DNA of 64,000 nt from an uncultured Clostridia bacterium (GTDB lineage: Bacteria > Acidobacteriota > Blastocatellia > UBA7656): NCBI GenBank assembly GCA_964615905.1, contig CAZTUB010000004.1:287527-351526 (forward strand). The letters are read 5' to 3'. Under the pieces are notes generated by a model. The model did no database searches. It was not told where the DNA came from and saw only the letters and a program-made list of their open reading frames with translations. Below are positions 14,101 to 14,304 of this stretch, in pieces. Made by a program: the position numbers and the translations under genes. The number at the start of each line of letters is the position of its first letter. The stretch's first letter is position 1.

Positions 14101-14194
14101 CAGGGCGGACATAGAGGGCGTGACGCTTCACCTGCTCTCACCGTTCGTCACGCCTAAAGACCTGTGGTTTGCAAAGAGCGGTAATGAGTCGTGA
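11135..14194 (+). CDS. Soluble chemoreceptor-like protein: HAMP-like + MCP signalling domain fused to C-terminal family-5 solute-binding protein domain
   Basis: The highly conserved MCP signalling-domain core is present ([36 protein letters not shown]). From about residue 530 there is a typical SBP_bac_5 start ([60 protein letters not shown]). No signal peptide or TM helix is detectable. Confidence 0.75.
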   Translation: [1019 protein letters not shown]

Positions 14195-14304
14195 ACCGTG
14201 ACAGGCGATCTGGGAAGGGTAAACAGTGACAAGTGACAAGAAAGAGATGAGGCGAGGCAACGGTTTCTTCTTCCTTGTCACTTGTCACTGTTTACTTGTC
14301 ACTC
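14190..14304. repeat. Palindromic heptamer-based repeat element, copy A (perfect 22-bp inverted repeat 14219-14240 / 14274-14295)
   Basis: gtaaacagtgacaagtgacaag ... cttgtcacttgtcactgtttac are exact reverse complements separated by a 33-nt loop. The element lies between convergent genes, and the TGA stop of the upstream CDS sits inside a cgtgaacc unit. Confidence 0.8.

Follow-up and report, generated by a model that had tools for sequence, protein, structure and literature searches.

What kind of element sits at the 3' ends of three genes within a single stretch of DNA from an uncultured bacterium? The stretch (hereafter, the window) comprises 64,000 nucleotides of contig CAZTUB010000004.1 (assembly GCA_964615905.1, positions 287,527 to 351,526), deposited as an uncultured Clostridia bacterium and placed by GTDB in Acidobacteriota; Blastocatellia; UBA7656. 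It carries three long palindromes, copies A, B and C, which are built from tandem 7-nt units such as GTGAACC, GTAAACC and GTGACAA. The reading that we favour, with moderate confidence, is that these loci belong, as short copies without a gene, to a family of foldback elements made of inverted heptamer arrays and resembling the intervening sequences (IVSs) of 23S rRNA. An initial annotation, made from the sequence alone, had regarded them as a novel family similar to repetitive extragenic palindromic (REP) sequences or MITEs (miniature inverted-repeat transposable elements), acting as terminators or mRNA-stability hairpins and donating the stop codons of the genes upstream. The presence of tandem-heptamer inverted repeats at all three loci was confirmed, with perfect arms of 22 nt in copy A and 32 nt in copy B. 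The features concerned are as follows.

14191..14302, no strand assigned: copy A, a compound heptamer palindrome that occupies the entire gap separating two convergent genes
14192..14194, plus strand: TGA stop of the open reading frame (ORF) 11135-14194, which ends NES-TGA, in the first heptamer of copy A (G-TGA-ACC)
31080..31172, no strand assigned: copy B, canonical in form, with an NfeD-like ORF on one side and a Band_7/flotillin ORF on the other
31095..31097, plus strand: TAA stop of the NfeD-like ORF 30438-31097, which ends NREP-TAA, in the third heptamer of copy B
40349..40477, no strand assigned: copy C, a nested form with outer arms at 40349-40376 and 40451-40477
40364..40366, plus strand: TAA stop of the phosphodiesterase-family ORF 38924-40366, which ends NRKP-TAA, in the third heptamer of copy C

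Copy B is the cleanest of the three. Its left arm (31080-31114) reads GCGAACC, GTGAACC, GTAAACC, GTGACAA, GTCAGAT and is followed by an 18-nt loop (31115-31132) and a right arm (31133-31167) of ATCTGAC, TTGTCAC, GGTTTAC, GGTTCAC, GGTTTAC, after which comes a degenerate GATTCC; the arms are complementary over 32 nt at 100%. In copy A, an outer remnant (GTGAACC, GTGACAG; 14191-14204) precedes the units GTAAACA, GTGACAA, GTGACAA (14219-14239), and the right side consists of TTGTCAC, TTGTCAC, TGTTTAC, TTGTCAC (14275-14302). The hairpin arms span 14219-14245 and 14269-14295, with an additional TTGTCAC at 14296-14302, and form an inverted repeat of 27 nt at 96% that includes 22 perfect nt. The left side of copy C (40349-40376) consists of GTGAACC, GTAAACC, GTAAACA, GTGACAA; further on come an expansion (TTGTCAC)x4 at 40413-40440, and TTGTCAC, GGTTCAC, GGTTCAC at 40452-40472; its nested arms measure 48, 27 and 16 nt, and an inner GTGACAAG hairpin pairs 40369-40384 with 40405-40420. 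The three had been called near-identical, which holds for their units but not for their layout: B is canonical, whereas A and C are compound variants enriched in GTGACAA/TTGTCAC. The tail common to B and C is as described earlier. Loops of the window copies measure 18-30 nt, and the terminal inverted repeats give a long stem; RNA folding yielded energies of -54.3, -66.2 and -57.0 kcal/mol for A, B and C, with z-scores against shuffles of -5.6, -13.7 and -6.8, respectively. No GTRAACC/GGTTYAC array (R, purine; Y, pyrimidine) arose in 20 shuffles of the window. At the Rfam gathering score the 64-kb window had no match, rRNA families included, and the matches of copy B, to generic microRNA-precursor hairpins, all stayed below threshold.

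The elements had been suspected to be dispersed well beyond the window, and this suspicion was borne out. When the 22-mer GTRAACCGTRAACMGTGACAAG was scanned against one genome per species, at least 104 stretches matched this core; the 80 matches listed came from 19 metagenome-assembled genomes (MAGs), with every record labelled Pyrinomonadaceae or Acidobacteria(ota). The element is dispersed through a family of soil Acidobacteria. Many matching stretches per MAG were found among the matches listed, and the 64-kb window has four copies if a decayed palindrome described below is counted. The genome of the window was not among the 19 MAGs of the 80 matches listed, and its coding regions were 65-73% identical in nucleotide sequence to the matched loci. 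In 786 kb of fetched loci (numbered with the prefix L), in which genes were called by our own heuristic from ORF length and GC content at third codon positions (GC3), we found 128 paired elements, 82 of them with 3+3 units and 31-34 nt between the arrays. The consensus reads aAAAgcC-(GTRAACC)x3-GTGACAAG-purine-rich/loop/pyrimidine-rich-CTTGTCAC-(GGTTYAC)x3-Ggc-tttT and is flanked by an upstream A-tract and a downstream T-tract (AAAAGCC ... GGCTTTT). Elements are 70-130 nt in size with unit numbers of 2 to 6, and each unit of this main sequence flavour contains GTGA or GTAA internally. Beside these, 21 GTGAACC units stand in tandem where a contig ends (L032, 1-148), which represents either an extreme expansion or an assembly break. 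Viral contigs gave 0 matches to the 22-mer, a full-text literature search found the exact repeat strings in no paper, and a literature search on Pyrinomonadaceae and repeats returned nothing relevant. The idea that the heptamers are DNA uptake sequences was rejected, as hairpin pairing accounts for 128 of 137 arrays and the elements are almost all intergenic by our gene predictions.

The evidence that links this family to IVSs comes from genes of the PF05635 (23S rRNA-intervening sequence protein) family located inside heptamer palindromes. At the yebC-ruvC junction, the window (7158-7235) has no element, L031 (4540-4640) has a canonical element whose first heptamer gives the yebC stop, and L046 (3868-4375) has the same element with ~430 nt inserted in the loop; the three junctions therefore represent three states of one site. 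The L046 insert codes for a 121-aa protein that matches PF05635 (E = 8e-39), TIGR02436 (four-helix bundle protein family) and the pentameric XCC0516 structure PDB 2GSC (E = 4e-32), with a weaker match to Avd, a protein of diversity-generating retroelements (DGRs). Close homologues form 4786 clusters at E <=1e-10, many of them on contigs <2 kb. At four of four further genomic sites that were fetched (the L105-L107 locus, L108, L109 and the L110/L111 locus) the gene lies inside a heptamer palindrome, one of these sites using another flavour, GTRAATC. At a single site, common to L105 and L106, an HNH endonuclease gene lies directly 3' of the PF05635 cassette (L105, 1667-2197).

A larger set of 80 soil-metagenome loci, 73 with enough flank and some possibly the same species resampled, gave the same picture. 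Arrays were present upstream of the PF05635 gene in 57, downstream in 58 and on both sides in 47 of the 73; the last of these compares with 61 of 635 control genes, themselves taken from element-enriched loci. An exact inverted flank match of at least 12 nt was found at 58 of the 73 PF05635 loci (~80%) as against 14 of the 635 control genes (2%). The nearest neighbour of a protein has the same heptamer flavour in 54 of 78 cases versus 19% expected, a value reached in 0 of 2000 permutations. Because protein clade tracks heptamer flavour, ORF and arms are inherited as a unit. Some ORF-bearing loci are arranged as left arm, leader, ORF and complete short hairpin, and others as left arm, ORF and right arm. 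Full-length relatives share their arms with the window copies and hold, in the loop, a leader and a PF05635 gene of ~120 aa; the layout is that of the classical ORF-bearing 23S rRNA IVSs, with the difference that it is found between protein-coding genes.

A comparable association was seen in another lineage. In Xanthomonas, Dokdonella and Dyella (L194-L210), an XCC0516-type PF05635 gene lies between accB and accC in all three genera. It is preceded by ~4 GGGAATC-type units that begin 5-6 nt past the accB stop, and it is followed by ~4 inverted units that abut the accC ATG and leave no Shine-Dalgarno room outside the array. This gene is flanked by exactly the GGGAATC arrays reported in the literature (PMC4692102), where 186 per genome were counted in Xanthomonas, mostly of four units, including 70-75 convergent inverted pairs. 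The Xanthomonas GGGAATC and Nostoc GGGGAYT heptamers of Rehm et al. 2015 are intergenic, enriched between co-directional ORFs, located within 50 bp of the stop and in some cases overlapping it, and were read as quadruplex-forming (PMC4692102). They share with the window elements the tandem 7-nt units (at least two) in intergenic regions and the convergent inverted pairs near stops; however, their unit is G-rich and without a stop codon, whereas the window units (GTGAACC, GTAAACC, GTGACAA) have no G-runs and are not of this quadruplex-forming type. We saw no PF05635 link mentioned in that paper.

In a third lineage, the 23S rRNA IVS of Coxiella is reported to contain an S23p ORF and an inverted-repeat stem of 28 bp, within which RNase III cleaves; in its 5' part, ahead of the ORF, are 3-4 tandem GACAGAT heptamers, and strains differ in how many they have (PMC4990558). 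ORF-bearing 23S rRNA IVSs, as in Coxiella and Leptospira, thus share with the ORF-bearing relatives of our elements a long terminal stem and a PF05635 gene in the loop. They differ in lying in 23S rRNA helices 25/45, whereas the window elements lie between protein-coding ORFs; the present elements, moreover, occupy many sites per genome, to judge by the counts above, nearly all without an ORF, and their arms consist wholly of heptamers. The short tandemly repeated repetitive (STRR) sequences of cyanobacteria are 7-bp tandem repeats that can form hairpins between genes, e.g., hupS/hupL; no function is known for them, although a part in the stability of transcripts or in the coupling of translation has been proposed (PMC2670836). 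STRRs have other sequences and belong to another phylum, and palindromic layout and stop content do not define them. Related small dispersed repeats were reportedly described in Nostoc by Elhai in 2008. Drosophila foldback (FB) transposons have long inverted termini of short tandem repeats, vary in length and are mostly noncoding; being eukaryotic and unrelated, they offer a likeness of form alone. The TAACTGA repeats of Beggiatoaceae (PMC4679880) were set aside as no close analogue, as they are direct repeats upstream of start codons. None of the three papers on Xanthomonas/Nostoc, Coxiella and cyanobacterial repeats (PMC4692102, PMC4990558, PMC2670836) links heptamer arrays in general to PF05635.

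These parallels lead us to a wider proposal, which we put forward only tentatively. PF05635/S23p proteins, which form pentameric toroids and are related to Avd, a cofactor of reverse transcriptase, may constitute together with inverted arrays of ~4 heptamers one widespread class of selfish foldback elements. Its variants or ORF-less relics would include the rRNA IVSs and the GGGAATC repeats of Xanthomonas as well as the Pyrinomonadaceae hairpins of the window, and possibly the STRRs. The protein might recognize its own heptamer flavour and help to propagate or maintain the element.

How these elements change at fixed sites was evident from orthologous loci. Among species with flanks 85-99% identical, most sites retain an element; unit numbers, the states of R and, above all, the loops turn over faster than the flanks. 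In L059 and L070 the loops are unalignable even with flank identities of 99% (left) and 91% (right). Mirrored R/Y positions covary (G:C 128 and A:T 127, versus G:T 29 and A:C 24), 94.5% of stem positions family-wide are Watson-Crick pairs, and orthologous elements show paired changes on both arms, e.g., L052 versus L091, as well as GTAAGCC/GGCTTAC in L070. The heptamer itself can differ at one and the same site: GGGGCTA/TAGCCCC in L004 corresponds to GTRAACC in L044, and GTGATAA/TTATCAC in L042 to GTRAACC in L068. Across all fetched sequence there are 221 heptamer palindromes in 51 flavours. Arrays of period 7 number 215, compared with 96, 37, 55 and 6 for periods 4, 5, 6 and 8, and 2, 0 and 0 for 9-11. 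The heptamer-palindrome architecture is therefore not tied to one sequence. GTGA, GTAA and GTAG are contained in 15, 6 and 4 flavours, respectively, and GTGG in 0; of the 51 flavours, 32 have a stop triplet in the 5' arm, but only 13 have one in the 3' arm as read on the top strand. Separately, L057 (~200-420) carries a different repeat, with units like cgtaatggcgttacgtcgtgacgtaatg, and an extra minus-strand ORF where its orthologue L017 has a heptamer hairpin.

Several of our observations weigh against the IVS-like foldback reading. The 64-kb window contains no PF05635 gene, and within L001-L104 just 1 of ~130 main-flavour elements carries one; for this reason the direction of derivation, from ORF-bearing to short forms, is something that we infer, and PF05635 genes could instead have settled secondarily in loops of existing hairpins. 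Most orthologous sites keep their element instead of differing in its presence or absence, target-site duplications were not detected (direct repeats of at least 6 nt in 0 of 113 elements), and no transposase or REP-associated tyrosine transposase (RAYT) was seen by any element, the ORFs of the loci not having been systematically scanned. The stop content of the flavours barely exceeds that of a within-unit shuffle (32 stop-bearing flavours against a null mean of 25.9 and maximum of 36), and some flavours, e.g., GGATTGC and the Xanthomonas GGGAATC, lack a stop altogether. Selection at the RNA level left no sign, as mismatches on the transcribed strand are G.U in 42 and A.C in 37 cases (p = 0.65). 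Since these numbers are alike, and since A-tracts upstream match T-tracts downstream in frequency even at elements approached by only one gene, arm symmetry seems to belong to the DNA level and not to have been shaped by selection on RNA. Finally, loci were picked with one 22-mer and one protein subfamily, and such single-22-mer ascertainment biases copy numbers and flavour proportions.

The alternative that survives best, which we regard as possible but unlikely, is that host 3'-end hairpins (bidirectional terminators or REP-like stabilizers) came first and that PF05635 cassettes later homed to their loops as parasites. Position relative to genes speaks in its favour, as it does for the reading that we prefer. 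Among 144 gene 3' ends facing an element, 128 (89%) stop within -25 to +14 nt of the element edge and 16 stop further off. In 82 (57%) the gene keeps its own stop 1-14 nt upstream, mostly 4-6 nt, typically as TRA-aagcc, and in 46 (32%) the stop lies inside the heptamers, at -4, -11, -18 or -25 nt, the steps of 7 nt being expected from G-TRA-NNN units. Elements are depleted between divergent genes (6 of 124, versus 85 of 644 adjacent gene pairs in the background). In the window, the last heptamer of copy A is followed after 4 nt by the stop (14307-14309) of the minus-strand ORF 14307-15320. As a side observation, at two loci (L068, 5859-5934; L042, 7694-7791) only ~5-9 nt separate the element from where the next gene, on the minus strand, starts, a distance at which the 5' leader of that gene would be the hairpin arm itself.

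The consensus A-tract upstream and T-tract downstream, the conservation of positions between species with flanks 85-93% identical, and the ORF loci that consist of left arm, ORF and complete short hairpin also fit a host hairpin. The terminator role that the initial annotation had suggested gained no support at the window copies, however: copies A, B and C have no U-tract, and a terminator scan reported no terminator-like site there. Across the family, only 31 of 66 unidirectional elements are followed within 10 nt by TTT, and the upstream A-tract is equally frequent, so that the symmetry is not shaped by transcription direction. In addition, stems of at least 30 bp are far longer than terminator stems, and the co-inheritance of protein clade and flavour fits a single unit better than random settling. 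The window also provides, at 45068-45104, an ordinary bidirectional terminator-like hairpin (AAAGCCCCCGCCATCG / CGGTGGCGGGGGCTTT), from which it follows that this genome has conventional terminator-like hairpins as well.

That the palindromes are a neutral mutational by-product, in which slippage expands 7-nt units and template switching at hairpins copies changes between the arms, with neither function nor dedicated mobility, strikes us as improbable. Such a process would produce what is seen in unit number (2 to 6, and the single 21-unit run in L032), in the loops of L059/L070 that cannot be aligned despite flanks of 99%/91% identity, in the 51 flavours that differ even at orthologous sites, and in a symmetry that looks DNA-level. 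It cannot explain the same 22-mer at no fewer than 104 sites in at least 19 species, and it leaves unexplained the tight spacing to stop codons, the bias towards GT plus stop over GTGG, and the association with one protein family in three lineages.

Spread by RAYT (an IS200/IS605-like Y1 transposase) as REP or bacterial interspersed mosaic elements (BIMEs) is highly unlikely. The REP/BIME sequences of Enterobacteria and Pseudomonas are likewise abundant intergenic palindromes at 3' ends, and the flavours CAGTAGT and AGTAGGC contain GTAG, the REP head tetranucleotide (PMC3733652). REPs, however, are imperfect palindromes of 20-40 nt with a terminal GTAG or CGTC, without tandem sub-repeats and mobilized by RAYT, whereas the present elements measure 70-130 nt, are made of tandem sub-repeats and have GTGA/GTAA in the main flavour with no single terminal GTAG; that no RAYT was seen adjoining them is a weak point, given the scanning mentioned above. 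REPs within ~15 nt of a stop are said by Liang, Rudd and Deutscher (2015) to affect translation termination. Equally remote is derivation as classical MITEs from a DDE transposon, to which the inverted repeats at the termini, the large number of copies and the varying interior might point: the MITE-like label given at first fails on the missing target-site duplications in 113 elements (4-mer direct repeats occur in 20 of 113 versus a null mean of 11.8 and maximum of 20), and the sole coding partner found is the PF05635/TIGR02436 four-helix bundle of ~120 aa, not a transposase.

If the window loci are IVS-like foldback elements, as we favour, what would they do to the genes that they adjoin? 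Most units consist of G, a stop codon and NNN. Since 7 = 1 mod 3, three such units put a stop into every frame, and because the arms are inverted, they do so for genes entering from either side; a gene end overlapped by an element can in this way still receive a short, defined C-terminus such as NREP or NRKP, which explains why these tails are shared. They had been interpreted as a footprint of the element, and indeed both are in-frame readings of the heptamers, AAC CGT GAA/AAA CCG TAA. Stop donation, assigned at first to every copy, applies to all three window copies, which have their stops inside heptamers, but it is a common yet minority outcome family-wide (the 46 of 144 above). The proposal that new C-termini arise in this way gained support from homologues. 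The NfeD-like protein of the window, whose best named matches are in Acidobacteria and Blastocatellia, parts ways with its homologues after GLF(Y), and a relative 81% identical has another, smaller heptamer hairpin at the same site that likewise donates the stop. yebC orthologues with an element have their stop in its first heptamer, whereas the window yebC, without one, has its own stop. These comparisons support the view that the elements reshape the C-termini of upstream genes.

At the RNA level, transcribed short copies would fold into nearly perfect double-stranded stems of 25-35 bp, immediately past the upstream stop or overlapping it. Such stems probably serve as hairpins for processing or at the 3' end, whether by offering RNase III a substrate, as in IVSs, or by blocking exonucleases; judged by their length of at least 22 bp, those of the window would resemble RNase III substrates. 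From this we infer a role for the short copies as RNA, and the window copies are likely to work as hairpins in RNA that present stops in every frame. A processing site for RNase III or protection of the 3' end is more likely than intrinsic termination, because the stems far exceed terminator stems, a U-tract is lacking and the scan was negative. Possible routes of spread are gene conversion among copies, template switching at hairpins, or an Avd-like route assisted by reverse transcriptase.

The novelty claimed for the family at the outset stands only in part. Inverted heptamer arrays near stops (PMC4692102) and STRR hairpins (PMC2670836) had been published, but the link to PF05635/IVS cassettes is new and had been missed earlier. 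It may tie the long-unexplained 7-base repeats of bacteria to the orphan PF05635 family. Three puzzles, each decades old, are concerned: the over-represented heptameric repeats, the origin of rRNA IVSs, and PF05635 as a large orphan family whose only characterized relative is Avd. With the association found in three lineages (two examined directly, Coxiella from the literature), they become one testable hypothesis. The elements also offer a concrete explanation for short C-terminal peptides shared by unrelated proteins of these genomes. In practical terms, they generate stop codons or supplant existing ones, interrupt metagenome assemblies, and will lead the prediction of terminators and gene ends in Acidobacteriota astray.

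Two further heptamer sites and one neighbouring gene in the window deserve mention. The fourth copy counted above is a decayed one.

24716..24838, no strand assigned: fourth, decayed heptamer palindrome, CAGTAGY flavour, with a loop of ~70 nt

Its units read CAGTGGT CAGCCAG CCAGT ... ACTGACT ACTGGCT ACTGCTG, and the TAG stop (24829-24831) of a predicted 85-aa minus-strand ORF (24829-25086) lies inside one of its heptamers. Two units at 63956-63969 (GTGAACCGTATACC) have no partner array and were taken as chance. Upstream of copy A, ORF 11135-14194 encodes a protein of 1019 aa in which a methyl-accepting chemotaxis protein (MCP) signalling domain (PF00015) is fused to an SBP_bac_5 solute-binding domain (PF00496), an unusual architecture.

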